Origin: Dipteris shenzhenensis | Taxonomy: Eukaryota | Strand: one strand, 5' to 3' | Length of the DNA: 64,000 bases | Assembly: GCA_047967505.1 (NCBI GenBank) | Contig: CM106538.1 | Shown here: positions 3,001 through 53,935 of the stretch, piece after piece | Position numbering within the stretch: position 1 is the stretch's first letter | Layout of the letters: each line of letters begins with the position of its first letter | The notes under the pieces: model-generated | Database searches by the model: none | Told to the model about the DNA's origin: nothing | What the model saw: the letters and a program-made list of their open reading frames with translations, nothing else | Program-made: the position numbers and the translations under genes

Positions 3001-4271
3001 GCAGAAGGATTTGCCATGGCTCAGTAGTTTTGTGAAGATATCTACTACTTATTCATATGTGTGACAATAAATAAGATCATTATAAAAGTTTTAGAATACA
3101 AAACATTAGAGGAATTTTGGACTCCAAAAAGGCCTTATAAGGAGTGGATTAGCAAAATGGATAAAGAACTAACAAGGCCTATAGAGGGTGCCATCACCCC
3201 ATATGAATCCAAAAAGTACACCTCCCTAGGCTTTGGTGGTTCCAAAAAGTGCACCTCCCTCTCCCACTTGGAGGGGGCCTCCACTTACAAAAATTCACCC
3301 TCTTTACACCATAAGGTGGTCCCCATCTCGTGGGTACCACTCCCCCAAAAAATTTGACTTTTTTGAAAACTTCAAAACTGACCTAAAACCCTTCCAAACC
3401 TTCCCCCAAACCATGCCTATGCACCCAAATCACTTTCCAACAGCCAAATCCTACTTCTTCTCACCATAGTCACCTTCCAACCCCTAAATCGTACTCTTTA
3501 TCACCATAATTACTTTTCAACCCCTGAATCCAATTTTTTCTCCCCATTTTGTTATGTTGTAATCTCAAATCTATGTTGCTTCCATTGATCCTATTCTACC
3601 TTGTACTAGTTTAAAATCTTTTTTCTTTTGACTTTCATGATTTATTTTTTCAAATCCTCTTATGGTTCCATTGGAAGATCACACCAACAAGCCATTAAAA
3701 AGCACCTTGCACATTGAAGTTGCACTAGACTATGCTACGCCTCTTTAATGCAGTGGCCACAAGATCGTTGACAAAGAAACATTAGATTGACTACAATAGC
3801 CATTAGATCGTTTTAACAAGTGCTCCATCTATGTTTGAAAATGTGACATGGTTTGTTTCAATATGTAGGAGATGGTCTTCAAGGCTTACATGGCTATTGT
3901 AAATTCATTGGTCATACTAGTGCTGAAGCCCAATTTACCATGATTCACTTGTTGAGAATGGAAGAAAATATTAAAAGACTTAAATATACCACGCATACTC
4001 TCCATGAACAACTAACTCAAGAATTAAAAAACTTTCTGATTCTAAAATTACAAAAAAACATCACAAGAGGCAATCACAAGATTAGTTGGTGATAAGAGCA
4101 AATTGTTGAAAGAGACTTGGTCCCTCTAGCAATATCTTGCTACATTAACTAGGAGATTAGAGAAAATAAATCCCTCTTTGTTACAAGCACAGGATCAAGG
4201 CTGTGTAACCAATGGAGAGCTTGGTATATGGTGATGGAGCAAGGAAGCATAGGGTGCAAGCTACATATTGA

Positions 4272-4286
4272 AACAGTGTAACATCT
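4272..4286 (+). repeat. Left terminal inverted repeat
   Basis: AACAGTGTAACATCT, preceded by TTGA. Confidence 0.85.
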
Positions 4287-4773
4287 CATTTGAGAACTAT
4301 AACCTCAAAAAGAGAACTCTAGGGGAATCTTTGAAAGATTTCCTCTTTTTCATGTGAATTTTATGTTTATTTGAAAAAGATAGCCTTTTTGCGTGACGGT
4401 TTTTGAAAAATTTCATAAAAACCATGCTTTTGTGAAATTTTGTCGACAAAGTTTTTTTGGAAAACGGGCACAAACACCTACACTTGGAATACCAAATTTG
4501 CAAAAAATACATTAATTTTTTAAAACCAATACAATAAGGGCCTATGCATCCAATGCTCATAAAAGGACCATGGCATAACACATTTCAAAATCCTAAAAAG
4601 GTACAAATCACATTGTTGCACAAACATACATGCCACTGATCCTACAAAGAATAATACTTATCCTTTGATCCTACACCTTCAAATGCACTAGAGCCTGAGC
4701 TTTGTGTGGTAGAAGTTGAACATCCTTCTCTAGGCTATCCACTAGAACATTCTCCGAGTCAACCTGGGTAAGT

Positions 4774-7641
4774 TTAGCTGCCACCCTCTTTTTTGCATGG
4801 CGTGTCTTGGCTTCCATTTGTTGACTGCATCCAATTAATGTCTTTAATATTTTTTGGGATATTATGTATTGTCTCCTTTGGTAAATGCCCGGCTTGTGTT
4901 AATTGAAATGCATATACCAAAATATCTACCTCATCCAATTGTAGAGTATCAATTCTTGGACAATTCTTTGTCGCCCTCTTCCCTTTTTGGCCATGCTTCC
5001 TTGTTACCACCATCTCTGGGTTATATCGACCCATGAAAGCATCCATGGACTTGGTGAAAAACCAATGGACCTCTATTGACTTGGTGTTTGAACCTTCCTT
5101 TTTGACTTTCACAACTTTAGCAATCCAAAAAGGAAATCCACTAGGATCATTTCTTGCTAAAACAGCAACCATCATACCCACTGCCAAGTCCTCGATGATA
5201 CTACTCCACATTTCTTGAACCCTTTCCCTGGCCTTTTTTAGACTTTCTTGCTCCAAGGTACATTTCTCTCTCCTCCCCAAGATAGTTCTTCTTTGAAGGT
5301 GCATGTAAATGCGCACTTGAAGAAGCATTCATACGTGCATTTACAAAATCTTGTTCAATGCATTGTGGCCAACTAAAATCTGACACATCTTGGGGGTCAT
5401 TTAGTAGGTGATTGATAAGTGTTTGGGATACAAAGAATGGATTCCACCATGTCCACACCACATCTTCAAAATATGTTGCAACATGCTGGATTGTTTCTCT
5501 AATCTCATTGACTGAACTTATAGGGTTTGCATCTCTCCCCTCCTTCATGGCTCGTTGCAACTCCCTCACTGATTGTAAAGGTTGTAAGGGTGCCACATAC
5601 AACTCACACTCTGGAACACACTTCAAAAACTTCAATCCTTTGACTGGAACCCAAGTTGGTGATGTGGAATAGAACTTCCCCCACAACAACGTCGTGCCTT
5701 CTTGATCTTTCTTCATTCGAAATTGGTGTTGAAAGCTTAACTCGTTGAGCTTCTCAATAGATCGATCAATTGGCTTGTTGTCACCAAACACAAAGTGTCT
5801 GAAATCTGTTGTTTTTTCCATGTTTGTAATTATCAGTTTTGGCACATATGCATCCTATAAAATGCGTATCATTGCCCTATCCCATGCTTCTTTCCTTCTC
5901 AGCTTTACTGAGAACTAGCTAAACATCTAATCAATATGGTCGTGTGTGTGACCCACCATAAGGAATCCTAATTTCACTTTTAGAAATATGCCTTTCTCAA
6001 CAAGCATGCAAAGATATGCCAACACAACTTGATTCTTGTTCTCTCTCGATGTGTTATCAAGTTGGACATACAACACTTTTGGAAGAGGTTGTGTAAGATT
6101 CCTCAATGCATCATTAAGAATGAAAACTGTGAGATTTCTTACATTTGGTGTCGTAAGATAAACCTTGGGGATTAATTCACCATGGTAGATCATGCATCCA
6201 ACCATGTGATATGTGATGAAGTTCTCCTCTTTCAAATCATTGGGCACTGGTTTGAAGTGTGGAAGATTGGTCTTCTTTTGATCCATCCCATCAATGATGA
6301 TGGTTATGTACTTGTCAGGCTGTTGGTAGCTCTTCTTGCGATGTTTCGCTAACTTCTTCCTTTCTAGAGCTTGCATTTCTCAATGCATTTGCAATTTTGT
6401 GATTGTTTCTTCTGCAAATATAGAAAACAATTAGATGTTGCAAGCAAACCATTTTTGTCAAAAAGAAGCAAAATTTCACGGTATCATTACACACACCTCT
6501 CTCTTGTCCTTGACTTCTATTATGCAAGACCTTCAAGTTTGCACATGTGGCACACACACCAAAGCGACAAAGCTTTGGTATCTTCACATTGTTGAATTCA
6601 TTCTTCCAAATCCTACAAAAATGATGGTATGTCACGTACTTGTCACCTGTAGTAACCATGGCATCCTTGTACATGGAATGGATCTCAAGCTTGGAGAAAT
6701 TATCTGATAAGTGCAACTAGTCACTATTTAGAAGAGCCTCGGCATGTTTTTGCACAAAGTCTTGCAGCCACAAGCATACCATATTGCCATGTGGTCCAGG
6801 CACTCTTATTTTCCTGCTATACAAGTGCAGGGGTCTTTATAGAGGTGGGCCTATAATCTTTTTAGCCTTTTGTTGCCAAGACAATGTGCAAGTCCATATG
6901 CTTTGCAACAAACAATCCTTGAAACGAATTTTGTTCATATTGTTTTCCGTAGGTCTTACAAACCATGCTAAATAAAAATTTTGATCATCTTTATTCATTT
7001 CAACATAATTTTGCCACCGTAAGACCCTTAATTTTGCAACCCCAAAAGTGACTAGGCACATTCTGCTACAGCAAAGAGTATTGCAAGTCTCTTTCAAATG
7101 TGCAGTGTCTAGCATTATACGAGATCTCCCTCTTGTGTAGCTAGACTTTTTGACGTCCACATTCATTGGTCTTCCCTTTAGTCTTAATAGACGAGATTGA
7201 ATTCCACTTCCCCTTTTGTGATAGCCGAGACAGTCATTGAGATCCATCTGGATTAGATGTCCCTTGTAAGAAATAATTTCTAGCTCCAAAAACAAAACAA
7301 AGAGAGCCATTGAATGAACTTAGACATGGACCACATACCTGATAACACTTGTTGACCTCTCGTGCTTGCTTCGACATCTATTATTTCATTGTCTTCAATG
7401 GGAATATCAGGTCCATGGATTTGAGTACCTAGGCTTCTATGTCCACCATCATGCTTAGGTAAAGGAGTAGGAGACACATCCAAGGTGGCCAAAAAGGTTC
7501 CACCACTAGTACAAAATACATGCAATGTAGCAAAGCACCCTTGGAACTGTGAGAAGAAGAAATTGAGATAGACGTAGTGTCAAATAAACCTCCCATGCAG
7601 AAATTTGGCAAGCTTCAAAGGGGATGCCCCAAAAGTGCCAT
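4774..7641 (-). pseudogene. Sola/DUF7869-like DDD transposase (stops and frameshifts; GT-AG intron at 6496-6412)
   Basis: Motifs CCSRMC, FCRIWKNEFNNVKIPKLCRFGVCATC, IIIDGMDQKKTNLPHF, LYVQLDNTSRENKN, FLMVGHTHDHID. Removing intron 6496-6412 joins ORF 6716 in frame to ORF 6376. Start and end coordinates are approximate. Confidence 0.8.
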
Positions 7642-8319
7642 GCAACAATGAAAGGTAGAAATTATGTGCCTGACCATAAAAGTCAAGGTTAGGTTTAGGG
7701 TTTTGGAGCATAGAGGAATTTCTAAAAATAGTATATTTTCTCTATAAACATGAGATTCTCACATTTGTTTCTCATTATTTCCAAATATGCCCAAGAGTTC
7801 AAAGAATCACCAGGTATGTGCAATTTTCTTATGGTTAAGTGTGTTTTATTTTTAATTCAGTCATGAAATCAAATTTTACTGTGTGCTTCAATATAATTTA
7901 CCGTATTTAAAAAATGGGGGTGGTGTGCTTGAATATTATTTAAAGTACTTTATGTTTGCTTTTTTGAAAGCACATTGCTTTGATTGCTAGTCTATCCTAT
8001 TTTACTAAAAATAAAAAGAAACATTTCTAAAACTAAATTCCTCTATATTCTACCCCAATCCCTTCTTGTTAGTTTCTCTAACCTCTCCATCTCTCCCTCT
8101 ACCATCTACCCCTCTCAGCTCTCCAGCTTTGCTAGGTAAGCTCTCCATCTCCTCATGCATTTGTTTAATTTTTTTTGGACTGAAGGGAGCTGCTTCTTCC
8201 CCGCCATCTTTTTCTTCTTCTTCCCCACCATCTTCTTCTTCTTCTTCCCTGAGCTCCCCCACTGATGCGCCCGTCGATTCTCCTCCCCAACCTCTTTTTC
8301 CCCTCACAGATTCAACACA

Positions 8320-8486
8320 CCTTCCACCATGCATGCAACCCAGTCGATGATATCATCGATTGGGCGCTTGCCCGGTCGATGATATCATTGACGAGCTGGT
8401 AGCCTGTCGATGATATCATCGACCGGGCAATGCGCCCATCAATGATATCATCGACTAGGCTACCAGGCTGCATGCATGGTGGAAGG
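8320..8486. repeat. Long hairpin containing four copies of palindrome GTCGATGATATCATCGAC
   Basis: Copies at 8343, 8375, 8406 (perfect) and 8438. Outer arms CCTTCCACCATGCATGCA (8320-8337) and TGCATGCATGGTGGAAGG (8469-8486). Confidence 0.92.
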
Positions 8487-8499
8487 CAAGGTGTTAGCC

Positions 8500-8500
<1 letters not shown>

Positions 8501-8552
<52 letters not shown>

Positions 8553-8659
8553 AGGGAGAGAATCAGAGAGGGAGTTAGGGAGAGAGGGAGAGAAGGAGAG
8601 AGAGAGTTAGGGAGAGAAGGAGTTAGGGAGAGAGGGAGAGAGAGAGTTAGGGAGGTAGG

Positions 8660-8709
<50 letters not shown>

Positions 8710-8716
8710 GTGAGAG

Positions 8717-8766
<50 letters not shown>

Positions 8767-8772
8767 GGAAGA

Positions 8773-8814
<42 letters not shown>

Positions 8815-8859
8815 GTGAGAGGGGAGAGAGAGAGAGAGAGAGAGAGAGAAATAGGAAGA

Positions 8860-8952
<93 letters not shown>

Positions 8953-8972
8953 TAGTTGGAGAGAGGGAGAGG
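8501..8972 (+). repeat. Interrupted (GA)n microsatellite upstream of the ParB-MTase gene
   Basis: About 470 bp of GA dinucleotides with recurring AATAGTGAGAGGGG and AATAGGAAGAAAG interruptions. Confidence 0.95.
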
Positions 8973-9352
8973 GTTTTTTGGTAAATTTTGTTTATTTTTT
9001 GGTCAATTTGTATTGAAAAGCAAAATTTTCTCTTCGAATTATGGAGTTGTTTTTTGTGTTTTTAAATTAAATTTGTGAGAGAGAGAGAGGTGTTTTGGCC
9101 ATAATTTTGTAGTTTTTGCATTGTAGTGTTGTTACTTTCCATGCTTTTTTCTTTTTTATTCTCTAGTCCAAAATCATGTTCCAGTAATAAGCATGTCGGC
9201 ATCTTTTTCCATGAAGAATGTAGATGTTAGAAGCTCAAAGTCTTTTTAGAAACCATCAAACTTGTTGTACTAGCTTTTGTTTTTTTCAACTTGAGATATT
9301 CTCTCCATGATATCATAATATTTTGACATTGTTTATGTCTTTTATAGGTATC

Positions 9353-12300
9353 ATGTCGAACAAACAACCTTTCGGAGAAATCCGTGTCTTTGGAAAGCCC
9401 ACATCGGAGGATGCTTCCAAAAGATAAGGGTGGAAAAGAAAGGCACCAAGGAACCAAAGAAAAGTGTCAAGGATCCAAGTCTTGAGGTGCAACAGCTTCA
9501 ACAGATTTATGATGTTCCTGCTCCGTTGGATGTTCGTTGCAAATTCGAAAATTATGGGACATAGCGAAGTACACAATAACATTGATTCAAAATGGACCAT
9601 CAAAGTTGACACTGATACAAAAGAGATTACTTTGTTGCTTCCAAAGACACTTCCCACTGGAAGATCAGTTTTTAAGCCAATAATATAGATTAAAGATATC
9701 TCAAGAAGTGAGTCCAATGAGGAATGTGTTGAAATGCTTGGGATTGATAACAATAAGAAACCTATTGTTTGTATTGTTATGGAAGAGAAGTTCTCTTTGA
9801 AAGCTGTTACTCCACCCGCTATAGCGGAACAAATAAAACAAATCAAAGAGGAAGGGAAGGTTAGTTACTATCGATAAGTAATTTCTAATTTTCTATGTTT
9901 ATGTAAATTCTTTTGAATACTATGAGAGATTCAACTTTGTTTTGTGTGTCCAGAATCTTATTTATCACTTGACAAATCAAATTGTGGAGGTTGATGAAAT
10001 AATCAAGGAGATGGAGGTATCAACTTCCAATAGTGATTCTGAGGAGCATACAGAGGAGGGTTATGAAGAAGATACCGCAACATCACCAATCAAACCAAGA
10101 GATTCTTCAAAGTCAAAAGGAAAGGGATCTTCCATGTTGGAGCTGAAAATTTTGGGTTTAATACACAAGGATTAAGAACTCCCATGGGTTCACATGGATT
10201 GAGAGCACCTTCTCTTTTAGGCCATCATGGATTGAGTGCACCCCCACGTGGGCATGGTTTGAGCGCACCCCCAAGTCGGCATGGTTTGAGTGCACCACTC
10301 CCGAAAAAATGACCTCTATTGGCTACAAGTGCGTTTCCTCTTGAGTCTTATGAGGATGTTGTTGAGGAGACTCCATCTATTGCACAAGGGAAAAAACAGA
10401 GTAAACCAGGATCAAAGGCTCCAAGGAGAGTACAGCCATTGGATATCATTGAAATCCCAACTAGTGGTGAGCTGCAAGTACCAGGAGCTGACATTGGAGA
10501 TGGTACCTCAGATACACAACAAAATAGAGTCCGAGCAAAGGTACAACAAGATAACCTTGTGGATCGACAGACTTTCTTCTTGCACATTGATCATGTTATT
10601 AAACCTCCTATTGATCCTAGGACTGCTGGCCTTCGACCATTTGAGGTGCATGCAATACATCCTTTCCATATTGAGAATTTGAAGTCATGAAGGAAGGACA
10701 ATCTACATGCACAAGTTGTGAACTACATTGTGCTCGTGGATACAAAAGATTGTCTAGACAATGCATCTTTTGATCGTCGGAAAGCAAATGATTATAACCA
10801 CTTTGTTCTTGGAGGCTTCCATTCAACAAAGGCAAAAAGGCAGTTGAATATTGAGTTTCCATGCAACTCTCATTACAAGACATGTAATTGTACAGTTTAT
10901 GCTGGTTTGACTGATTTGGAGCAAACTTACTGGCTTTTGATCACAATAATGACAATGACTATAGGAAGTCCATGTCTTGGATAGAACGGGTTCGTTTCCA
11001 TCACAATGAGCTCATTTACAAAACTCAATGAGGATTGTTCTTTGATCACTCTAGAGTTTCACTTGTCTTTGTTGAATGAGACTAGGATTTCCGCAACAAT
11101 TAAAGATCCGTCAAGGCCAAGTGACAGCTTCAGATCATGGGACGGTTTCAAATTGCATTTCATAGTGGAGAAGTTTGGGATTTGATAAATGCAATTTTTT
11201 CAAAGTCGGAGAATTTTGAAATCAAAGGGCATAAAAAACTCAAACCTAAAGGAGTCAAGAAAGAAACCTAGACCTTGAGAAGGCATTACCTGAAGAAATT
11301 CGAGCCACAGCATAGAAGAGCATGTAGGGAATTAAAGATGAGATTCTAATTAAGTATGTGCTTGGCAGAGTGGTGTTTGGGGATCTCTCTTTAGATGAAA
11401 TGGCAATGAATTTGATGAGTAAGTAAACTTCTCTCCTTTGCATCATGTCTCTTCTTGATTTTACGTTAATCTCTTTACGAATAATGTTTCAATAGACTTT
11501 GTTTCAACTGTAAAAGTGAGAAGAATTTTACATGTGTTTTCAATGCAGGCATAAAATATACATGAGAATGCAGGAAGCAATGATCCAGCAATTGAACATG
11601 CCAGATTGGGATGCTATTCAGGAGGAGTATCCAGAGAGTAGTAGGATGGAGAGCTTGGCTCCATATTTCAATGTATTCAAAAGCATGGTATGTCAAATTT
11701 GGTATACATATGCTAATGGAAATTTTCTTTCGAATTGTAGATTTGAATGTTTAAGATATTGAGCTATTTTTTTGACAACCACCTCCAGAAAAGAGGCAAG
11801 AAGGGATCTGAGAGTAGTATGATGCCTGCAAGCTTTAAGCGATTGATTGACCGGGCTGCAAAAGAAAAAGACCGTCAAACTTGACAACAATCTATAACTC
11901 TTAGTGATGACATGTTAGAGTTTGACAACCATCCACCAAACTTTTATCGTGTGCTCAACGAAGATTGCAATGAATTGTCGAAGATAGTTCCAAAGAATGA
12001 GTACACATTGGTCATTGCAAACAAACCATATAGATTTGATGTTCCCGGATCCACCTTTGATGAGGTCCCTTACAAAGAAAAGGAACTAATGAGTCTCCTT
12101 GACCAATTCATGTCAATTACGATGGCAACACTTTGGCATGTCATAATTTTTCATTCAAACTTGCAGTATGGGGCAGTGATGAGTGTCATCAATGATAAAT
12201 GTGCTAGATGTGACCACCTTTATTGATGAGTGTAGCAATGAAATGCAAAGATTTTTTTGGCTCAATTATTATTGTTATAATTGTGGTTTCTTTTGATAAA

Positions 12301-12822
12301 TTTAAAACTTATTTTTGTTTCATGTCGTAGGATGAAACCCAATGTGAGACAAATGAAAGGACATCGATTCACGTCTACTATAGAAAACATTTCAGTTGGG
12401 TATTGTATCAAAAACCACAACTCCTAATTAATCAACTCATAGATTTGTTTTCAAATGAGTATGAGTGGGTACTCGATTTATTTGCTGGTTCAGGCACAGT
12501 CACAGCACGTGCCTTAAAAAAGGGTCGAAATGTAATTGCAATTGAAAAAGATCCTATTCAATGTGATTACATAAAGAAGAGAGTGACTGCTATTCATCAC
12601 TTGCCTGATGAGCATCAGGAGCTTGGTTTGAAAGGTGGGAAGTTCAATGTAGATTCGGTGGTAGCCTCGTCAAGGGAGCCCCAACCTCTTGAGCTATTGA
12701 AACCCGATTTTATGGAGGCAAGCGAGCTAGCTGATACATGGGAGAAGGAGGTTGTGAAAGAGAAAGCGATTGACAAACCCATACAGGAAACCCAGACTGG
12801 GAGGGTGATGAAGATGAGGTAG
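9353..12822 (+). pseudogene. Spliced gene: ParB-like domain fused to beta-class N6/N4 DNA methyltransferase
   Basis: ParB-like segment LRPFEV..HIENLK..NYIVLVD..FVLGGFHS..VYAGLT..LAFDHNNDN (10570-10990). Catalytic motif LVIANKPY (NKPY at 12020-12031) precedes QKPQLLINQLIDLFS..VLDLFAGSGT..GRNVIAIEKD (12409-12552). Frame-preserving introns at 9860-9953, ~11423-11548, 11688-11788 and 12226-12330 (donor apparently mutated GT>AT). Several stops and frameshifts. Confidence 0.85.
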
Positions 12823-13136
12823 ATGACACATATGGGAGAATTGAGTAGACTCTAATTATGGAATTGTATTGACAATTTTTTGTATTTGAATGGTTTCAAT
12901 AGACAAGTGTTCTTAAGACATTTTAGAATCCATATGCTTTGAATGTTTTGAACATTTAGTTTTCCCCATTAATTTGTTGTTGGGGATGGTTATGAAGATG
13001 ATGTAGATGACGCATATGGGAGAATTGAGTAGACTCCAATTATGGAATTATATTGACAATTTTGTGATTTTGAATTGTTTCAATATACAAGTGTTCTTAA
13101 GACATTTGAGAATCCATATGCGTTGAATGTTTTGAA
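12808..13136 (+). repeat. ~180-bp tandem duplication at the 3' end of the MTase gene
   Basis: Unit ATGAAGATGA..GTAGATGAC..ATATGGGAGAATTGAGTAGACTC..GAATGTTTTGAA occurs at ~12808 and ~12992. Confidence 0.85.
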
Positions 13137-13529
13137 AAAGGAGGCATTTACTCTTTCCCATTAATTTGATGATATTTTTTGTTCTTTCAATACTTTATGT
13201 GATACCACAAAGTTTAACTTAAGAATTTTGATAAGGTTATGTTACTACACACAGGAATGAAAGTTGTATCATGTAGTTTTTCTATTGAAAATAAAAGGTC
13301 AAAGGAAGGAAAAAACTTAGAGACTTCTTGATTTTTCTAAATACATTGATATTGTGCTCTGTAGTCAAGGTCCTTCATAATTTGCGAGCATTATGTACCA
13401 AAATTGATACGATTTTAAAAGTTTTGAAAAATTCACTACACAAAATATGACCTTTTTTTGAAATTTTTATAATTTTAATGAATTTTTTAGGGAATCTTAA
13501 AACAAGTACCAATGTTACATACTTGAATT

Positions 13530-13544
13530 AGATGTTACACTGTT
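13530..13544 (-). repeat. Right terminal inverted repeat
   Basis: AGATGTTACACTGTT, the exact reverse complement of the left TIR, followed by TTGA. Confidence 0.85.
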
Positions 13545-15775
13545 TTGACTATTTTGTAATTGTGATGCATTACTTACAACCATGTAGTTGTGTATTTTTC
13601 TAATGTCATCGTTCTTTTTACAAGAATTTTATGGAGGAGGTTACTGGAAAAGAATTCCTATAAAACTTTGTACTGTAAAGAGTGTAGTGAAGAAGAGGGA
13701 TCTTCGTCAGTGTGCATTGTGGCATACAATATTGCAAGAGGTTGCACCTAGGAAATATTGTAGACCTATTAGAAGTTGTCCATGCATGTGATGCTGCAAG
13801 CATTAGTAGAGAAGGGTACGTAGTTGTATATAATGTCTTTGTAAAAGCACTTTGAGGTGAAGGTGTGAAGAATCTTTTGTTTCCAAGACCATTACATGTT
13901 AGAAATGTAAGAGAAAAATAAATTCTACTCTCCAAGATCTATTGTATGGGATTTATACACATTTCAGAAAGCATGATGTTGGAAGGCACAAACAAGACAA
14001 GGCCAAGAGAGTAGAAAGAAAGGTGAACAAGCTACCAAGGGGGCAGAGTGTAACAATGTCTTTTTGGATGTACACAACGTCCAAGCTGCAATGGTAGTGT
14101 TTTACAATATGGAATCATAGGGTAAGTGACATTTCTCTTGTTTATTTGAGTCGCAATTTCTTAAAGGTCTTTTTAAATAGTCTAAATCTTATAATTTTTA
14201 AGATTGTGAATAAAAGTTAGTATTTGTGATTAAGTTGGTTATCAAAGGCCATAAGTTAGAGAGGTTGAGTATTACTTTGATGAATGAAGCCCTTGAACAT
14301 GCCAAAAAAAGGGAAGTTAGAGAGGGCCACTTTTTTAGCTCTCATTTCCATAGGGTAGGCTAGGGCTTGGATGTGTTTTGATCACAAAACAAGTAGATGC
14401 TAATGCCCTACAATGTGGGTTTGGAGCTAGTAATGCCACTTGCACAAGGTCAAATTGACTGGATTTCTCTCCGTCTAGACCTTTGGCAAAGTCCTCTCAC
14501 TATGACATTATTACCCAAGCCTTGAGCTCTTAAACGGACCTGTTCGCCACCCTCAGTCCTTGAACCCATGAGTTGAACCATGGTGAGTTGGGATGTAGAT
14601 GGATTCCATGATTATGCAAGATAGGACCACAGCACTAGATTCTTCACTAGAATTGTAGAGCCCTTGTAAGGGGGCCCAATAGACAATCTTATGCTTCATG
14701 ATGAAAAACTCTCTATCATTGTTTGACATTGATTTGTGCTAATTGATGCCTTGACCATCATTTTAAATTGTTGTAGACTATTTGGAGCTCCTCTTGAAAT
14801 TTTCATAAGCTCATAAATGTTTTGTTTTATATTTGGATAGAAGAGTACTTCTCCTCAAAGATAGTGATGGTTTGTAACATAGTTTTTTCCCATCTTCTTG
14901 AAGGATTTTATACAATGATTGTTTCATCTCTTCTATCCAAATTTTCTTCCTTTGAAACTTCCTAATAAGCGCATGGATAAATAAATAGATTTGGGTATTC
15001 TATCAGAAATTGCATGTTGCAATTTCTTTCATGGAATTTCGAACTCTCGTATAATTTATGGTGTACATTCCAATTTGATACTACAATTTTATTCTAAAAA
15101 TGTAAATGTCTACAAGAATTTCATATATCATTGAATCAAATGGAGACATTTCAGAATCAATATTTCTAAATGCATGACGTACTCTTGTTTGTTCTTTATG
15201 GATAAAGACTTTGATATGTCTCATTTTTAAAATACCTGGAGACATAATTTTGTGCATGTGGACTTTGTTGGGGACTCCTCTCAAGGGGTTAAAGATATTG
15301 TGTGATTTGTTGGGTTCTCTTGGAGTCGGTCGGCTAGTCGTATGATCATGAGGTGGTTGCGAGGCTTTGATTGGTGGACCATGCAAGTATTTGGAGGCCG
15401 GCCAATGCATGCAGTATGTGTGGTGGTTCCTTGGTTGAGAGCAAGTAGTTTTTGAAGGTTCACGTGCGGCAACTAACTTCTCTCTCAAGCTGATCAATAT
15501 ATGAACCATGGAGGCAATTGGATCCATCTCTTTGTCAAGGCCGTCGAGCTTGTAGGAGTCGCAACTAGTAGTTGCTTATAGTTCTAGGTATAGGAGTCAT
15601 TTGCAGGTCTTGTAATAGCCAACAAACCCCGTAGGGTTGAGGCTCATTTTGTCAACAAATAATAGGAGGAGTCGAGTCGTTTTCATTGCAGTATTTCATC
15701 TTTTCTATATCACTCTTTTGATGCTATATGTGAAGAGTTGATCTCCAATTAGTTTGATGCTTTGAGAGACAACCG

Positions 15776-16790
15776 TGGTATCAAAGCTTGGTTGTTCTAG
15801 AGGATATGAGAGATTGAGGTTTTTTGGGTTCGAGTAGAGCTCGTCAAGTCCAATGAGCATAATTGCGCTGTGGAGATTTTTGGTGTTGTGTCTTCTTGCT
15901 ACGTGACAAGGAGATCAATAGGTCAACGGTCTACAAAATGCAAGGAGATAACTGTACCTCGTCATCTATGGAGCCAGTAAAGAAGGAGAAAGCTAATTCA
16001 ATCTTGAAGTTCAATGGGAAGAACTTCCCAAGTTGGCAGATGTCCACTAGGTTGTGGCTCATGTGTAAGAATTTGTGGGGGATAGTTTTTGGGAACAAGA
16101 AGAAGCCAACCAAGTCCGGACAGGATGTTGAGAAAGTTTCAATGTGGGAGCAAAAGAATGAGCGGGCTACTAGGAGGATGGGTCGAGCTCTTGGGTCAAA
16201 ATTTTTTCATCACCTAGATGTTTCTAAAACTGCAGCTGAGAACTGGACAACCCTAGAAGTTTAGTTCAATGTATGCATAAAGCATTCTAAAGCAATGTTG
16301 AAGCACGGACTCTACGATTTCAAGATGGACGATAGTGAGAGTCTTGGAATGCTTTTGAATAAAATGCAGGCACTCTGGAAGCAGCTGCAGGATCTAGGAT
16401 TCAGGGTTGAAGAGGATGACAAGAAAGCCATATAGTTGAAAAGTCTTCCCTCCAGGTTCAGTGAGTCTACACGTATTCTCAGGTTGGATGATGAAGCTAA
16501 CTTCATCGACTGCGTAGGACTACTTATGAGCAAGGAGAAGAGGGAGGAGAATCTATTTTCTGGTGATGCTGCATTTGATATGAATGATAAGAAGAATATG
16601 ACCAGAGACACCCTTGCATGTTATTACTGTGGCAAGCTTAGCCACATTGAGAGGTTTTGTGTCAAAAAGCAGAAGGATGAAGAGGCAAAAAAGGAAAAGC
16701 ACAAGGCATGTGTCATCGAGGAGTCTACTTCAGAGGAGTTGGCGGTTTAGTGAGTGATGACATGCCTGACCAAGACTGGGCGTTTTGATT
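15776..16790 (+). mobile_element. Degraded Copia-type gag remnant (possibly a gag-only element)
   Basis: tRNA-Met PBS TGGTATCAAAGC at 15776; KFNGKNFPSWQM..LWGIV; zinc knuckle CYYCGKLSHIERFC; ends DWAF*; no pol recognisable downstream. Confidence 0.75.
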
Positions 16791-40745: not shown

Positions 40746-43384
40746 TGTTGGAATACTGAAAGGAAAGAGTAGAGTGGACACAAAATCAGAATACTTGCTT
40801 ATGGAATGAAGAAAAGTGAGGTCCTTAAGTAGGCACCTCATACAAGCTCACTGACATCACTGATGACTTCAGAGCTCCACAATCATCTCCTCAATCTGCT
40901 CCTAGATTCTCTCAATCATCCTATGTGGCTCTCCACCACCTAACTGTGCTTGTGGGCACCTAACTGTGCCTCTAGCACTCACACATAGAAACATAAGGTG
41001 TGCCTGAGGCATACACCTTCAGATATCCCAACAAACCCCTCCTCAAGGAAATGCCTCAGGCTATGTCAAGGATACATCTAGTCTCATAGTTTCTCATGCC
41101 ATCTCATGGTGGTCAAGGATTAATCTATGGCTAGGTTCTCATGCTAGCAAGGGTTCCCTTGGGTGTAAGGTAAACAAAAGGGATACAAAAAGACCTTCCA
41201 ATGGTTATCTCCCCTGCATGTACATGCACACAATGTCTGCAGGAGGTACCATGGAACAAAACATACACATGGCCTACATCATAAGGTGACCAGAGGTGTT
41301 TACAAAACACACAAAACACAATAGTTTATTTTCATTCATTTTGGAGGACTATCCAGGCTGAGTACCTTGACATAAAAAGAGAGATCTGGAGCATACATAG
41401 AGATGTGTTTAAAATGCATAATCTTCAAAGGATGCCTCATCTTGTGGAGGCTCATTAACTGTAAGTAGATTTGCATTTTCTGTCTTTGCTTTGGCTCTGC
41501 AAAACTTCTCATGATGGTTGTTCTTGCCACAGTGCTTGCATGGATTAACTTTGAAGCAGTCCTTTGAAAGGTGATTTGTCTTTCCACAGTGATTGCAAGG
41601 AGTATACTTGCCCTTCTTGACTTTTACAGCATAAGCAGTGTCATTGCCTTTCCTTAGCTCCATATGCCTTTCTTCTTCTTGGAGAGCAGAGATAATGCCT
41701 TCAAGGTTAGGATTGGGAAGATTCTTCAAAGTGCTAACAATGTGATCAAAACTTTCAGGCATACTCTTAAGTAACACTGCCATAGCATCATCAGGAGTGA
41801 TAGGAGAGTTGATAGAAGCTAATTGAGTCATAAGACTCCGCATATAGTTGACATGAGCAGCTAAAGTAGTATCACTTGCCATCTTTAATTCAAAGAAAGA
41901 GATTTTAAGTGATAGTTTAGAGATGTGAGAGCTTGCACCAAAAATCATGTCTAGCTTCTGCCAAGCTTCCGAAGGAGACTCCAAATCAGAGATATGGTGT
42001 ATATAATCATCACCCAAAGCAAGAGTAATGATACCATATGCCTTTTCTTCTCTTGCTGGATCCCTTGCTGGTCGTGTCGGTGTTGAGGATTCTCCAGCAT
42101 TGGAGGCTGTAGAAGAAGCGGTAGGAGTAGGTTTGACAAGTCCCCATAAGTTCTCCCGCATCAATGCAAATTTCACCTTCATTTGCCATGTATGGAAGCC
42201 CTTTCCATTGAACTTCTCAAGATTATATATGGTAGCCATGAGAGGGTCTAACCCAGATATTGGGCAGTGTCTATCTCTCTTACAAGGCAAAAATAACTGA
42301 AAGACTTCCAAAATATGAGCACTTAATGTAGCAAATAGTAGTGACTAGATTTCAAACAATGATGCTTCTTCTTACATGCTTCATAGAAGTGGATGAAATA
42401 AACATTTTCCAATCAAAACCAGGTCTAGCAAGTCAAAACAAAACTGAATCCACACTTGTACTGAAGTTATTGAAAGCTTCAAAAAACCAGAAATGCTAGA
42501 GTAGCATTTTATGTAGCATCATCTTCAAAAACTTGTCCAAAACTATCAAAACTGAAAAGCTGAACTTGGAGGGCTTGTAGCTCACTCTTCAAAGCAAGGA
42601 AAAGAGGGCTTTCTGAAGCAAAAGAAAGCTCATATACCAGAGAAGGTCCAGCACAGAGGTTGGACGAAATGGTGCGCACTTTTGCCCGGGAGAGTTGCTA
42701 CAGGCTGAAACTGAGTTTTGACGATTTCTCCCTCGTTACTGAACCAAATGACCTGAAAAATGGCTCAAAATCTTCGTCTTGAGGTCGCCCATCTACTCCT
42801 AAGAGGGCTCAGGCAGTGGCAGAGTAGGCAGGGAGTATTGAGCAACAGAAGAAATTCGCTGTTTGGAGAATGGCAGCCACCACAGACGTTTTTTCTTCAA
42901 TTGCTTGCAGGTGGAAGTTCGCCCATACTAGAGGAGTTTCCAGCTCAGAGGGTTTGGGCAATGGCTGTTTGTAGATGGAGAACCAAGCTCTCAAAGATTT
43001 TGGGAAGAAAGAGGAAAATGGAGAAGAAGAAGAAGATGATGATGATGATGATGTGGCAGAAATGGGCTCAAGGGGGATCAAAGGGCTCTGATACCATGTT
43101 GGAATACTGAAAGGAAAGAGTAGAGTGGACACAAAATCAGAATACTTGCTTATGGAATGAAGAAAAGTGAGGTCCTTAAGTAGGCACCTCATACAAGCTC
43201 ACTGACATCATTGATGACTTCAGAGCTCCACAATCATCTCCTCAATCTGCTCCTAGATTCTCTCAATCATCCTATGTGGCTCTCCACCACCTAACTATGC
43301 TTGTGGGCACCTAACTGTGCCTCTAGCACTCACACATAGAAACATAAGGTGTGCCTGAGGCATACACCTTGAGATATCCCAACA
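40746..43384 (-). mobile_element. Gag-only non-autonomous LTR retrotransposon (TR-GAG type), 2,639 bp
   Basis: 288-bp TG..CA LTRs at 40746-41033 and 43097-43384 (3 differences seen); TSD CATGA; PBS at 43085-43096; PPT next to 41034; no pol. Confidence 0.93.
41409..42239 (-). CDS. gag: Intact Gag (276 aa) with two CCHC zinc knuckles
   Basis: MATIYNLEKFNGKGFHTWQMKV..; CNHCGKTNHLSKDC and CKHCGKNNHHEKFC. Confidence 0.88.
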   Translation of the reverse strand: MATIYNLEKFNGKGFHTWQMKVKFALMRENLWGLVKPTPTASSTASNAGESSTPTRPARDPAREEKAYGIITLALGDDYIHHISDLESPSEAWQKLDMIFGASSHISKLSLKISFFELKMASDTTLAAHVNYMRSLMTQLASINSPITPDDAMAVLLKSMPESFDHIVSTLKNLPNPNLEGIISALQEEERHMELRKGNDTAYAVKVKKGKYTPCNHCGKTNHLSKDCFKVNPCKHCGKNNHHEKFCRAKAKTENANLLTVNEPPQDEASFEDYAF

Positions 43385-45441: not shown

Positions 45442-48400
45442 CTATTCAGTTGACCTCAACTGAAAAGCTTCCTTGTAAACATCCAAAAGCTGTGGATGAT
45501 CGGATAACATGTCTTCGTCCATCCACTTGGCATCTAATGCCGTATAATTCTTGAATTTTACAAGATACCTGTAAAATTCTTTACCCTGAGGGCCTTTACG
45601 TACAATATGGTACACAATTTGCTCTGGCTGAAGGACTTCCTCCAGCTCATCCACTTCTGGTGGATCTTCTGATACTGGTTCTGTAGGCTCTGGTCCCTGA
45701 AATTTCTTTAGAAGACTCACATGGAATGCATTGTGAATCCTCCAATGCTCTGGCAATGCTAATCTGTATGCAACCTCATTTATTCTTTCTGTAACCCTGA
45801 AAGGGCCATAGTATCTGGGAGATAACTTTGCATACACTTTCTGTTTGCCTTTAAACTTGCGGAGCCTAGCTTTTTCAAACTTTAAAAGTACCCAGTCCCC
45901 TTCCTTGAGATCCAACTGTCTCCTATGTTTATCTGCAGCCCTTTTATGTTTCTCTTGAGACCTTTCAATTGCTGTCCGGACTTGGCTGTAAGCTGTCTGG
46001 AGGTCTCTTACAAACTGATCAGCTGCAAATATTTCATCTTTAGTCCTCAATATAGGTGGCAAAATCACCTTCCCATATATGACTTCAAAAGGGGCTTTCC
46101 CTGTAGAGCTATGTACTGTATTATTGTAAGCAAACTCTACTAACGGTAGGTACTTTTCCCAGTCTGAACTTTGGTCACCCACGTAGCATTTCAGCATATC
46201 CAAAATGGTAGAATTTGCTACTTCACTTTGACCATCTGTCTGGGGATGGAAAGAAGAAGAAAAATTCAAATTCGTCCCCATGTTATCAAATAAAGCTCTC
46301 CAGAATAGACTGGTCATTCTGGGATCTCGATCACTAACAATGGACTTAGGCATACCATGATGTTTAAAGATCTGTGCCATAAACAACTTAGCCATATGAT
46401 CTGCCTTTATGGTTTTGCGAACCGGAAGGAAATGAGCTTGCTTGCTGAATCTGTCTATGATAGTCCAAATCCCGTCATTTCCTGACTTTGATCTTGGCAA
46501 ATCAAAAATAAAGTCCATTGTAATATTTTCCCATGGTGCCTGAGGCACGGGAAGAGGCATAAGTAGGCCAGGTGCCTTCTGTCTATCATACTTCATTTTC
46601 TGACACGTAAGGCATTCAGTAACAAACTGATGTATATCTTTCCGCATTTCTGGCCAAAAGAAATACCTCTCTAGTGCTAGAGTTGTTGCTGTAATTCCTC
46701 TGTGTCCAGCATAGGGAGGTGCATGGCATTCCTCCAAAATCTTTTTCCTCATCTCCTGGGTGATGCATAGGCAATCATCTTTCATTAAATACCCATCTTT
46801 CAGGGAATAGTGACTGGTGGATTGCCCTTCTTGCATCTGCTGTAAAATTTCACCAAAATCAGAATCATGAGCATATTGTTCCCTCATGTCTTCCAGGTCT
46901 TGATGATAAGCAATAGTTACATTATTGACCTGGGGTCTTCGGGACAAGGCATCTGCCACTCTGTTCCGAATTCCTGGAGTATGGACAATCTGAAAATGAT
47001 ACATTGACAGCATGTTTGCCCATTTCATATGCTTCTCTGAAAGCTTGGTCTGAGTCAAAAAGTATTTCAGACTTTGGTGATCTGTTTTAACAGTAAAATC
47101 TGCACCCAAAAGGTAATGTTTCCAGGTATGGATAGCATGAATTACAGCCAATAACTCTTTCTCATAGATTCCTAAATATCTTTCCGCATCCCGAAGTCGC
47201 CTGCTTTCATAAGCTACTACATGACCATTCTGATGCAATGCAGCCCCAACACATTCTCCACAAGCATCACAATCCACATCAAAAGACTGATACATATCCG
47301 GAACTACCAGAATAGGCTCTGTAGTCAACTTTTCCTTGAGTGTATTGAATGCTTTCTTCTGTGATAATCCCCATGTGAAGGCTGCATTTTTCTTAGTGAG
47401 GTCATGTAATGGAGCTGCGATATCAGCAAAATGTCTGATAAACCTTCTGTAGTAAGAACACAAGCCTAAAAAGCTTCGAACTTCATGCACAGTTTTCAGC
47501 TCTGGCCATTCTTGAATGGCACGGATCTTCGCTGGATCCATTTGTATCCCATTCTTGGATATTATATGCCCCAGATAATGGATTTCTTCCAAGAAGAACT
47601 CACTTTTCTTGCTGTTTGCATAGAGCTGATGATTTCTCAGCTCTTGAAACACTATAGCAAGATGTTCTCTGTGGTCTTCATCTGTCTTAGAAAAAACTAA
47701 GATATCATCAAAGAAAGTACCGGTAAAATGCCTGTACTTCCGGAAGATGCGATCCATCATTCTATTAAATGTGGCTGGAGCATTTGTCAATCCAAAAGGC
47801 ATCACTAAGTATTCATACAACCCGAATGTTGTGCGGAATGCTGTCTTATGCACATCCTGAGGCTGTATCCTCACTTAGTGGTAGCCACTCTTCAAGTCTA
47901 TCCTGCTGAAAACTGAAGCTCCATTTAACTGATCCAAGACATCATCAATACGCGGAATAGGGAATCTATTCTTGATGGTCATTTTGTTCAGTGCGCGATA
48001 ATCAACGCACATACGGAATGAACCATCTTTCTTCTGTACTAACAGTACAGGGGAACAAAAAGGAGACGAGCTGGGCTGAATCAAGCCTTTGGACAGCAAG
48101 TCCTGTACTTGAGCCATAATCTCCTCTCTCTGAGTCGCACTGACTCTATAAGGGGGTCTGTTTGGTGGCTCACTACCAGGCATTAACTCTATCTGATGAT
48201 CTTCTGGTCTCTCTGGGGGTAACTCCCCTGGCAAAACATCAGAAAAGCAATCTTTAAAGTTTACCAAAAACTGAAACTTATCTTTGTCTGCATCATTCAT
48301 TTCAGCATGCATATCAGTCTCTTTTTCTTTTACAAAAACCATGTACGCAGAAATTGCAGACTTTATTGCTTTACCGCATGAAACATCAGATACAATGGGG

Positions 48401-50103
48401 ATAGTGTCCCCTTTATTCCTGGCAATTACACGCTGATTTTTCCCCCTATGTACAAATTCCAGCACTCTTTCAGGAAGAGTCAACTTCACTGCCTTACGAT
48501 GAAACCAAGGCATCCCCAAAACTACATCATAATGTTTCAGTGGAGAAATGAAGAAGTCTTCCTGATCCACATAACTCTGAATATGAAGACGGAGCTTCCC
48601 TATCAAGGGAGTAACTGGCACAGGATTCCCACAAAACATTTGATCGGCATCCAAAGCCCTGCCTAGCTCTTCCGTCTTTATTCCCAGCCTCAGGGCTAGA
48701 TCCTCTGATATGAAATTATCAGTAGCCCCTGGATCAAATAAAATCAGCGCTTGCTGGTCTCTAACTTTGCCCCATGATAGCAGCAATTCTCGTTCTTCTG
48801 GGTTCAAAGCATGACCCAGTATATCAGGAATACCCCCCGCCATTGGCTTTTGCGGTCCTCGTGGCTTCTCTGCCTCTTTTCCCTTCGATGATGAAGGCTT
48901 TTCTGGGCACTGGGCAGCCACATGCCCCTCTTTACCGCACCTGAAGCATTTCCCATCTCTACGGAATTCCGCTATCTGTTCAGGGGTAAAAATAGATTTG
49001 CCCTTATAGGTCTTTGAGAACTGAGTACCCCTCGGCTTCTGAGACTGAAACCCTTTCTTTTCAGCCTTAGGGGACTCTTTCTTTTCTGATTTTTGAAAAT
49101 CAGATTTCTTTTTATCAGCACGTCCTGCATGCAAGGATGGCACTGTAGATGGATCTTGTAGCGGTACAAGACTCGCTACTGAGGCTGAATGCATAAGATC
49201 TTGAATATTCTTTGCCCCCAAAGCATTCACTACTGCCTGAATTCTTGGAGTGAGACCTGCTCTGTACTTCCTCATCTGGGTACCTTTGGAGATCTTTTTG
49301 AACGGTGCAACCTGCAAATAAGCATCCCAGAACTTTTGGTTGTACCCATCCACTGTATCTCCTGCATCCATGTGCAAGCTGTCCCAGTCTTGAAGAACAT
49401 GGTCTCTGAACTGTTTAGGCATGAACTGCTGGTAGAAGGCTTTCTTGAAGCCCTTCCACTTTCTTGGGGCTGACCCATCTGTAGTCAGTGCACTCCACCA
49501 TGCACTAGCCGTTGCTGTTAAGTGTAAGCTGACCATTCTTAATTTGGAGGATTCTGAAAATTTCTCTGTACCAAATGCAGCATCAAACTGTCTGATAAAC
49601 TGCAATGCTTTGTCTGTATGACCATACTGTCCATTGTAGGTCATAAACTTGACAGATTTTCCTCCCTCTTTAAATTCCTTGGTCGCTTTGGAAGACTTTC
49701 TCTTCCCAGACTTCTCGTGTTCCTTCTTCCTGGATGGTTTATCTGATAAGGAAGAAGAAGACACAGAAGTCGAACTCGAGGTAGACGGTGATGGACTAGG
49801 AGATCAGTGACGATGCCTCGATCTCTTTTTACTATGGAACCGTCTCCTATGAGATCTATGAGATCTCTCTCTCTCAGACTGTACACGGGAGTGTGCCTCT
49901 GGCATTGGCACGTCATATACTGGATCAGGCATAGCCTCTGCTGGAAACAAATGCTGAGCCCTGGGATCCCTTTTAAGATTTTCCAGCTCTTGTATACGAG
50001 TGCGTACCATTTGTTCAAATTCTTGTTGAGTTTGTGGCACATTCCTCTGTCTTGGATGCTCATCCCTATCTTGAGAATCCCACTGGATAGGTGATTGATC
50101 CAT
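45442..50103 (-). pseudogene. Single-frame gag-pol (gag, protease, RT, RNase H, integrase, chromodomain) with two in-frame stops
   Basis: [45 protein letters not shown]. Stops at 49804-49806 and 47875-47877. Confidence 0.9.
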
Positions 50104-53900: not shown

Positions 53901-53935
53901 AGGATTCTGCTAAGGAGTGTAAGGAGTAGTGCATG

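Follow-up and report, generated by a model that had tools for sequence, protein, structure and literature searches.

We describe a bacterial-type, beta-class N6_N4 DNA amino-methyltransferase gene in a 64,000-nt stretch of the Dipteris shenzhenensis genome (GenBank assembly GCA_047967505.1, contig CM106538.1), which as a whole is called the window below. Both halves of the permuted methyltransferase domain lie on the plus strand at 11912-12600. This feature is probably the decayed accessory gene of a dead cut-and-paste DNA transposon of about 9.3 kb (4272-13544), in which it is the second gene beside a transposase of the DUF7869 type. The window copy itself is a pseudogene, as seen from its in-frame stops, frameshifts, AT intron donor, decayed motif IV and a deletion of about 45 codons, and being dead it has no function of its own.

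The transposon in the window

The element at 4272-13544 encloses both the transposase gene and the methyltransferase gene, which stand head-to-head across an array of palindromes. Its inverted ends, 4271-4290 and 13526-13545, agree at 19 of 20 positions (95%), or at 18 of 19 if 4272-4290 and 13526-13544 are compared, and the likeness extends to 33 nt at 82%. This pair is the only long-range inverted 20-mer with at most one mismatch in the first 20 kb, and any such pair was present in 2 of 60 dinucleotide shuffles. The terminal inverted repeats (TIRs) are flanked by a target-site duplication (TSD) of 4 bp, and with these short TIRs the element fits what the passages on Sola2 in PMC3627910 say of that group, the comparison being by description only. 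In run X1, the alignment of a related DNA contig starts at 4273. In addition, low-coverage DNA contigs of two runs (X1 and X2) cover 3107-14141 and are mostly 80-95% alike, which fits a repeat family.

The transposase was recognised from the minus-strand open reading frame (ORF) 5927-6379, which matched PF25273 (DUF7869) with an E-value of 3e-29. Its DUF7869 relatives number 91 at E<=1e-3 and come from ferns, Riccia, Ginkgo, sea urchin, amphioxus, coral and clam. The gene in the window is decayed, since tblastn of P0040 covers residues 46-806 of that protein in three frames with six in-frame stops. Three blocks are invariant in nine DUF7869 relatives, namely G-M-D-Q, Q-x-D-N and G-H-T-H-x-x-x-D-Q, and these fit the triad of a DDD/E transposase, to which we provisionally assign the family. 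In the search for a transposase superfamily, Pfam gave only DUF7869, the Atlas only DUF7869 clusters, and the profile search of the Protein Data Bank (PDB) nothing. A match to rve in P0022 was rejected, as it belongs to a separate N-terminal piece and not to the DUF7869 part.

The methyltransferase gene and its lesions

The methyltransferase was read from two ORFs. The downstream one, 12331-12822 (...YQKPQLLINQLIDLFSNEYEWVLDLFAGSGTVTARALKKGRNVIAIEKD...), matched the Pfam family PF01555 (N6_N4_Mtase) with an E-value of 8.3e-13 and 49.2 bits at a cut-off of 26.7, the match spanning positions 162-221 of the 221 in the profile, i.e. the C-terminal third only. The upstream one, 11885-12226 in frame 2 (...KNEYTLVIANKPYRFDVPGSTFDEVPY...WHVIIFHS...CDHLY*), matched no family in the Pfam scan. 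Searched against 1.84 billion representative proteins it gave 52 matches at E<=1e-3, seven of them at E<=1e-10 and the best at 3.4e-14, and the proteins matched include full-length methyltransferases with both halves. The frog protein P0129, also among the matches, was left out of account, being a repetitive gene model of fibronectin. The S-adenosylmethionine (SAM)-binding motif I (DLFAGSGT) and motif X (YQKP) are both present in the window and align to M.RsrI. Motif IV (ANKPYRF, 12017-12037) lies 5' of motif I (VLDLFAGSGT, 12469-12498) on the same strand, and this order, which is also that of the relatives, marks the beta permutation. A preliminary description of this stretch, made from the letters alone, had already placed the catalytic motif before the SAM-binding motif in a bacterial-type beta-class domain with spliceosomal introns; the Pfam match, the fold matches given below and a conserved intron all agree with it. 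The canonical tetrapeptide (D/N/S)-P-P-(Y/F/W) was not found, the window reading N-K-P-Y at this place. Within the 64 kb the methyltransferase gene is present in a single copy.

With tblastn of relatives from Ginkgo (P0096, P0151 and P0152), from Adiantum (P0137) and from a JGI contig (P0144), homology was traced between about 10343 and 12687, broken into five consecutive frame segments. Three of the frame changes are introns and the rest are damage (Table 1). Removal of intron 1 gives ...EMAMNLMSK/HKIYMRMQE, which matches ...EMVTEFNK/SHKVYMKIQE of the relatives. Exon 3 ends with ...TAT TG (12225), and when it is joined to the G at 12331 the product reads L-Y-W-M-K-P-N, as the preliminary description had predicted. 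The same Trp codon is split by an intron in eight of the nine loci examined, with the junction TG/GTAAG...AG/G, the exception being the decayed locus L007, in which there is no such junction; intron 3 is therefore real and old. In the window its junction reads TG/ATGAGT...TAG/G, with the donor AT at 12226-12227.

The lesions are spread over the gene. Exon 1 has a stop at 10688-10690, a frameshift near 10921-10927 that falls inside the most conserved block (LLAFDHNNDNDYR), frame changes at about 11010-11250 and further stops at 11313-11315 and 11325-11327, and exon 3 has a premature TGA at 11882-11884, where the relatives have coding sequence. The last exon is 62% identical to residues 518-611 of Ginkgo P0096. 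In it ...ENISVGY ends at 12403 and YQKP starts at 12406, so that 2 nt (12404-12405) with a shifted frame stand where P0001, P0002, Ginkgo P0096 and locus L019 have about 40-47 residues, and the deletion that had been suspected at this point is real. In a further copy, from a public DNA run, 11 letters stand in place of 12342-12406. Relatives also have an extra intron inside motif I (DLFSGSG/../GTT; 4205/4291 in L019, 4198/4252 in L005, and others), whereas motif I of the window is contiguous, and this difference is an intron loss or gain within the transposon gene.

Table 1 Features of the transposon in the window, in order of position
Feature	Position	Strand	Basis or remark
Left target-site duplication TTGA	4268..4271	.	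Same 4 bases at 13545-13548
Left terminal inverted repeat (AACAGTGTAACATCTCATT)	4272..4290	+	Pairs with 13526-13544
Decayed DUF7869-type transposase gene	4837..7199	-	PF25273
Palindromic unit array (GTCGATGATATCATCGAC)	8339..8459	.	Period 32, 3.7 copies; between the divergent genes
(GA)n microsatellite, about 237 units	8500..8971	.	Intergenic
Exon 1 remnant, conserved N-terminal domain (GG-x-H-S..A..., DHN-x-DN-x-YR)	10343..11422	+	tblastn of relatives
Intron 1, GT..AG	11423..11548	+	Sequence reading
Exon 2	11549..11687	+	Aligns to Ginkgo P0152 segment HKVYMKIQEHMARGLNCLSWEEV...PYFIAF
Intron 2, GTATGT..CAG, phase 0	11688..11788	+	ORFs on either side match successive parts of relatives
Exon 3, N-terminal (catalytic) half of methyltransferase	11789..12225	+	tblastn and ORF reading
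Intron 3, splits Trp codon, donor AT not GT	12226..12330	+	Comparison with relatives
Last exon: target-recognition remnant, motif X YQKP (12406-12417), motif I VLDLFAGSGT (12469-12498), acidic tail to stop	12331..12822	+	PF01555
Tandem duplication, 184-nt unit, 1.8 copies, 91%	12799..13136	.	Overlaps last codons and stop of methyltransferase gene
Right terminal inverted repeat	13526..13544	-	Pairs with left end; terminus reads ...ACACTGTT
Right target-site duplication TTGA	13545..13548	.	Sequence reading

The methyltransferase family in other plants

Named members of the family were found in Ginkgo biloba, Adiantum nelumboides, Diphasiastrum complanatum (fused to a P450 in the gene model), Riccia sorocarpa and Chara braunii, and the names under which they now stand in the databases are hypothetical protein or DNA methylase N-4/N-6 domain-containing protein. 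Ginkgo has Gb_37443 and four paralogues at 58-95% identity, i.e. at least five copies. A scan of metagenome contigs fetched 80 loci, several of which are plainly plant genomic DNA, with ORFs of a long interspersed nuclear element (LINE), of gag and of a dehydrogenase adjoining the gene; the loci in a sample are many and differ widely in coverage. Many of these loci hold intact copies in which exon 1 is an uninterrupted frame of 470-569 codons followed by four short exons. In full-length proteins the PF01555 match is stronger than in the window ORF, with an E-value of 7.6e-18 and 65.7 bits for Ginkgo P0096 and 68.9 bits for P0151.

Motif IV could be read in 29 loci with a recognised region, as DIPYGF in 16, DIPHGF in ten, DIPHGY in two and DIPRGY in one (the decayed L007), so that D-I-P-[Y/H]-G is kept in 28 of the 29. 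The window reads A-N-K-P-Y-R-F against the consensus ADIPYGF or ADIPHGF, and other relatives have D-A-P-Y, D-V-P-Y and D-F-P-Y. The motif of the family is thus D-x-P-[Y/H]-G, and the first Pro of the canonical motif is absent throughout. Read from these alignments, the family has a variant of the beta-class catalytic motif and the window copy has a decayed form of it; that NKPY might be decayed had been raised in the preliminary description, and the consensus D-I-P-[Y/H]-G-[F/Y] bears this out.

Nonsynonymous and synonymous divergence (dN and dS) were estimated over 306 methyltransferase codons for 15 pairs. The pair L014 and L013 gave a dN of 0.020 and a dS of 0.372, which is a ratio of 0.05, and L019 with L012 gave a ratio of 0.02. 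Ratios of 0.02-0.03 were obtained at dS above 2 for L019-L011, L014-L011 and L011-L013, and the remaining 10 of the 15 pairs had saturated dS and dN of at most 0.16. Exon 1 had similar ratios of 0.03-0.04. Judged by these values, the intact relatives are under strong purifying selection. The preliminary description had named, as grounds for giving up the identification, a failure of profile searches, or loss of the motif in all copies together with neutral evolution. At the level of the family neither holds, since profiles match it, the relatives keep the motif, and dN/dS is 0.02-0.05. A distant relative (about 26-30% identity) at L075:65-2218 is an uninterrupted ORF of 718 codons with the N-terminal domain and D-A-P-Y-G-W and no Pfam match, and it may represent an intron-poor lineage from another group of eukaryotes.

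Relation to known methyltransferases

The fold was assessed on the Ginkgo relative P0096, the window copy lacking about 45 residues of the domain. By sequence, the only solved structures matched by P0096 at E<=1e-3 were M.RsrI (2.3e-6), M.MboIIA (5e-6), CcrM (5e-6) and M.BceJIV, all of which are N6-adenine enzymes. The AlphaFold model of P0096 has a mean predicted local distance difference test (pLDDT) score of 54 overall, the methyltransferase part being mostly at 70-91. When this model was searched with Foldseek, CcrM came first (E-value 3.6e-14), followed by MboIIA, BceJIV and RsrI (1e-12 to 4e-14; probability 1.00), whereas the N4-cytosine enzymes ranked lower, with N4CMT at 1.3e-10 and M.PvuII at 2.2e-10. 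Since the nearest solved enzymes by both sequence and fold are all N6-adenine enzymes, N6 of adenine is the more likely target of the family than N4 of cytosine. The preliminary description had taken an N or D at the first motif position as a hint of N6-methyladenine (6mA); the solved structures point in the same direction, and we keep adenine as a probable rather than an established target. The S-P-P-Y/F motif of the N4-cytosine type was not found, the family having D first.

CcrM, M.MboIIA, M.RsrI and M.BceJIV share with the plant family the permuted order, with motif IV before X and I, and the domain PF01555. Identity to these bacterial beta-class enzymes is only about 20%, however, and the plant motif IV is D-I-P-[YH]-G where theirs is D-P-P-Y. 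The plant gene also differs from them in its introns, in the roughly 330 conserved residues that extend its N-terminus and in its acidic tail, and it lies in a eukaryotic transposon, whereas the bacterial enzymes belong to restriction-modification or to the cell cycle.

Close parallels in eukaryotes are N4CMT of bdelloid rotifers and MpDN4MT1a/b of Marchantia, which are likewise bacterial-type N6_N4_Mtase domains encoded with introns in a eukaryotic genome. These are single or tandem host genes with S-P-P-Y, whereas the plant transposon family is multicopy and has D at the first position. The catalytic motif of MpDN4MT1 is given as TSPPY in the passage of the bioRxiv paper that describes it. 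N4CMT carries a chromodomain, and the part of Rodriguez et al. (PMC8885841) that deals with the bdelloid enzyme states that it is without eukaryotic homologues.

The N-terminal domain

The approximately 330 residues that precede the methyltransferase are strongly conserved, with an invariant Tyr, Gly-Gly-x-His, Ala, Pro, Tyr, Leu and His. The block V-I-G-G-x-H-S-x-E-A-R-R-Q-L (GG-x-H-S..A) of this domain is one which we take to resemble the ParB box. In Pfam scans, one at E-values up to 10 and one member by member, DUF6551 matched the domain weakly (0.009-0.03) in 2 of 13 members. The language-model neighbours in the Atlas were DUF3723 clusters at 0.95 and a ParB_N cluster at 0.92, and the PDB profile search gave no match to the domain, ParB included. 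The AlphaFold model of P0151, with a pLDDT of 40.7, was too poor for use.

The same peptide patterns that fetched the plant loci also fetched a bacterial contig, L057, whose ORF at 3536-4891 (452 residues) has ParB_N with an E-value of 1.1e-5 (25.8 bits at a cut-off of 26.3) and PF01555 with 1.2e-43. Prokaryotic and phage ParB-methyltransferase fusions of this kind resemble the plant protein in their architecture, in which an N-terminal domain, DNA-binding or nuclease-like in the fusions and putatively so in the plants, is followed by a beta-class methyltransferase; the plant domain has the GG-x-H-S..A box, and it lies next to palindrome arrays. The only leads to homology of the N-terminal domains are the matches to DUF6551 and to the DUF3723 and ParB_N clusters; in hhalign of the plant family with the L057 protein only 34 C-terminal columns were aligned, and the N-terminal domains were not. 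ParB-linked enzymes are described only in algae, chytrids and haptophytes in the section of the review by Iyer et al. (PMC4738411) that treats them.

Transposon context in the relatives

The copies in the metagenome contigs behave as parts of a mobile element. Pairs such as L019 and L018 or L014 and L031 match almost perfectly as far as a common point, beyond which their sequences differ. Besides the query L019, 15 loci match its terminal 93 nt; 12 of them reach the end ...GAACGCGAACGTGTT (...GTGTT) and three have variant ends (L043, L063 and L051). The flanks that follow this shared right end differ among the 15 junctions printed. For the lineage of the window itself, the copies seen were only the diverged low-coverage contigs of the two runs. 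The conserved terminus ...ACGTGTT lies 0.75-1.2 kb past the stop of the gene, compared with 0.72 kb in the window. About 20 nt inside it there is a subterminal hairpin (AAGTGGAA...TTCCACTT), seen at L019:5347-5372 and in 15 further loci.

The transposase was met beside the methyltransferase in two of these contigs. At its start L019 encodes the N-terminal 23 residues of a DUF7869 protein, and 19 of these (83%) are identical to P0019, and its DUF7869 gene is divergent from the methyltransferase gene and 1.3 kb apart from it, a layout as in the window. In L068 the C-terminus of the methyltransferase adjoins a convergent DUF7869 gene. Riccia, Adiantum and Ginkgo each hold both families.

Between the divergent genes of L019 there are nine 41-bp units, each with CCAATTCGATAC-TGA-GTATCGAATTGG, and the palindrome array of this locus lies at L019:663-1046. 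The core TCGATAC-N3-GTATCGA is found upstream of the gene also in L016, L011, L014, L022 and L028, with varying flanks and spacers, so that arrays of it occur in six of the eight members of the L019-like clade whose contigs reach upstream of the gene. The core was not seen in L005, L010 and L023, and L009 has an unrelated palindrome. These arrays look like operator or recognition sites. The TCGATGATATCATCGA units at 8339-8459 of the window stand at the place equivalent to the arrays of the relatives. The TIR motif of the window is absent from the fetched loci, and at the nucleotide level only about 90 nt of the SAM-binding exon resemble them.

Other features of the window

The depth of the interval 9005-10806 was 317-362 in run X1 and 3225-7776 in run X2, compared with about 5-20 in most neighbouring bins. 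In both runs the excess breaks off sharply at 10806, and the loose ends there have one and the same sequence. The interval takes in the beginning of the conserved N-terminal domain, and it may represent either a highly abundant non-autonomous derivative or an independent high-copy repeat. The consensus of the loose end after 10806 had no match elsewhere in the window.

The window is rich in retrotransposons. Pieces of copia gag and reverse transcriptase lie at 15863-16264 (to 16750), 41409-42344 and 52578-53909, and a Ty3/gypsy chromovirus polyprotein lies on the minus strand at 45442-49803 and is largely open (642 and 810 codons). A GC-rich ORF of 1176 codons at 60472-63999, of the LINE reverse transcriptase type, runs off the end of the window, and beyond 56 kb the GC content is 0.55-0.61, up from about 0.38. 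Rfam gave no RNA family in the window.

Objections and alternative explanations

Several observations weigh against the reading of the feature as an accessory gene of the DUF7869 transposon. The register of TTGA was chosen after the fact, and a 4-bp TSD alone is weak evidence. The first 170-230 residues or so of exon 1 in the relatives have no counterpart in the window, and the contig depth of 9005-10806 is 20- to 900-fold above that of the rest in both runs, which might point to a composite structure. Of the relatives' element only the right terminus, the end that they share, was seen. Linkage of transposase and methyltransferase outside the window comes from two short contigs (L019 with 23 residues, L068 with a different orientation), i.e. 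from 2 of the 80 loci; the other long loci L007, L031, L014 and L010 have no DUF7869 at E<=1e-5, and the likeness of L018 to L019 begins only at L019:1183, between the two genes. Finally, Ile, Ala, Val or Phe replaces the first Pro of motif IV, and His replaces the aromatic residue in one clade, so that the proteins could be inactive DNA binders.

This last point leads to the alternative that survives best, which we nevertheless consider unlikely, namely that the protein of the family is catalytically dead and is a DNA-binding accessory that uses the methyltransferase fold. The same has been proposed for the methyltransferase-like domains of DIRS1, the copies of which are called likely inactive in the passage of PMC4738411 concerned with them. 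A motif IV without its first Pro, with His for Tyr in one clade, and an upstream half of the domain that Pfam does not recognise would both fit a dead enzyme. However, the Asp, the second Pro, the aromatic residue or His and the Gly of motif IV, together with YQKP and F-x-G-x-G-T, are kept under strong constraint, which is the pattern of an active SAM-dependent enzyme. Moreover, methyltransferases of the Erm/KsgA type act on adenine with N-[IL]-P-Y.

Somewhat less probable still is that the methyltransferase gene belongs to a mobile or repeated unit of its own, or was captured as a passenger without a role for the element, and lies nested beside the DUF7869 transposon. This would account for the 99% identity of L018 and L019 that leaves out the transposase side, for the 3' 3.2 kb that is all L014 and L031 share, for the scarcity of DUF7869 among the loci and for the far greater abundance of 9005-10806, which is part of the 5' region of the gene. 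Most loci are too short, however, to reach a transposase 1.3-2.8 kb upstream, and in the window the one long-range inverted repeat that is significant brackets both genes, as does the TTGA duplication. The order of transposase, palindromes and methyltransferase recurs in L019, with no likeness to the window in nucleotides, and purifying selection at saturated dS speaks against a functionless passenger. From the L018-L019 comparison, the methyltransferase unit may also spread without the transposase.

The preliminary description had framed the feature as a horizontally acquired gene akin to DN4MT1 and N4CMT. In that case a domesticated host methyltransferase would have left a decayed paralogue beside a transposon by chance, and we have given up this framing as improbable. 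Introns at conserved positions and a very low dN/dS are what would be expected of a host gene; in addition, forms with the methyltransferase only, lacking the N-terminal domain, exist (P0114 with 347 aa and P0116 with 416 aa), and L031 has the gene near an ORF which, by reading it, is an ordinary plant-type dehydrogenase. Against this, the TIRs and the TSD enclose both genes of the window, and L019 has the same divergent layout with DUF7869. The family is multicopy, with five paralogues in Ginkgo, many contigs of widely different coverage in a sample and diverged copies in two DNA runs, and in 15 loci the gene stands at a set distance from one conserved terminus whose flanks differ. The motif, D-I-P-[YH], also differs from the TSPPY that DN4MT1 has.

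That the gene is left over from an endogenised giant virus or from a phage-like insertion with a methyltransferase is highly improbable, for although beta-class methyltransferases and ParB-methyltransferase fusions are common in phages, and two viral (phage-like) contigs as well as the bacterial fusion L057 were found with the patterns of the family, the viral and bacterial matches cover only the last 60-125 residues (the SAM-binding end) at 31-44% identity, the gene has three spliceosomal introns, its neighbours are a eukaryotic transposase and plant retrotransposons, and no viral hallmark gene was seen among the window ORFs scanned.

Proposed mechanism and relation to known mobile elements

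Returning to the accessory gene of a DUF7869 transposon, the element would once have had two divergent genes separated by the palindrome array. The minus-strand gene would have encoded the putative DDE/D transposase of the DUF7869 type, and the intron-bearing plus-strand gene a protein in which the conserved N-terminal domain is fused to a beta-class N6_N4 DNA amino-methyltransferase. We infer from the conserved sequence that the protein of intact elements methylates DNA. Methylation could take place at or near the TCGAT-containing palindromes of a bidirectional control region, or more widely on the element, and the methyl mark could tune transcription or transposition of the element by way of transposase expression, or blunt silencing by the host. 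The bacterial elements IS10 and Tn5 are regulated by Dam. The self-methylation role suggested here is drawn from this precedent, from the conserved architecture and from what has been proposed for Dam-bearing retrotransposons.

Taken further, and only tentatively, since we regard it as rather doubtful, a lineage of transposons in streptophytes from charophytes to gymnosperms might encode a methyltransferase that is active on N6 of adenine (or N4 of cytosine) and is fused to a domain that binds specific DNA sequences. Such a protein would bind the TCGAT-type arrays and write a non-C5 mark that controls the divergent promoter or shields the element from silencing based on 5-methylcytosine, and it would be a natural source of 6mA or N4-methylcytosine (4mC) in land plants.

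The theme of mobile elements that carry DNA-modifying enzymes is already known. Retrotransposons with DNMT and fungal DNA transposons with TET/JBP are examples (PMC5890265, PMC12730594); Dam-type domains are described in retrotransposons (DAM-LTR/DIRS) only, and a self-regulatory role is proposed for them, in portions of a 2026 preprint (10.64898/2026.05.21.726589); and Bao and Jurka (PMC3627910), where they discuss these groups, report that Mariner elements of giant viruses carry methyltransferases and that Sola2 has 4-bp TSDs. The plant element shares with the DNMT, DAM-LTR/DIRS, viral Mariner and TET/JBP elements that a mobile element has its own DNA-modification enzyme, which probably acts on the epigenetic state of the element. 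In those elements, however, the enzyme is a C5-DNMT, a Dam-type enzyme with N-P-P or TET/JBP, in retrotransposons, viruses or fungi, whereas the streptophyte element, a cut-and-paste transposon with DUF7869, has a beta-class N6_N4 enzyme to which a distinct N-terminal domain is joined. Our full-text search found no literature description of DUF7869 and, among the titles listed, none of plant transposons with N6_N4_Mtase, with supplementary files, which were outside the search, possibly listing further families. A transposon family that appears to have its own beta-class methyltransferase therefore looks undescribed.

Implications

Reports of 6mA or 4mC in the DNA of land plants are disputed. 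In its passage on plants, the review by Iyer et al. (PMC4738411) says that land plants show few N6-adenine methyltransferases. For annotation, the present family means that its members may be mistaken for host methyltransferases. If the enzyme of intact elements is active, ferns, lycophytes, liverworts and gymnosperms would have in it a concrete and testable writer of 6mA or 4mC, one that is conserved, selected and multicopy. The idea of mobile elements with their own epigenetic enzymes, which now rests on retrotransposons and on fungal TET/JBP elements, would then extend to cut-and-paste DNA transposons of plants.

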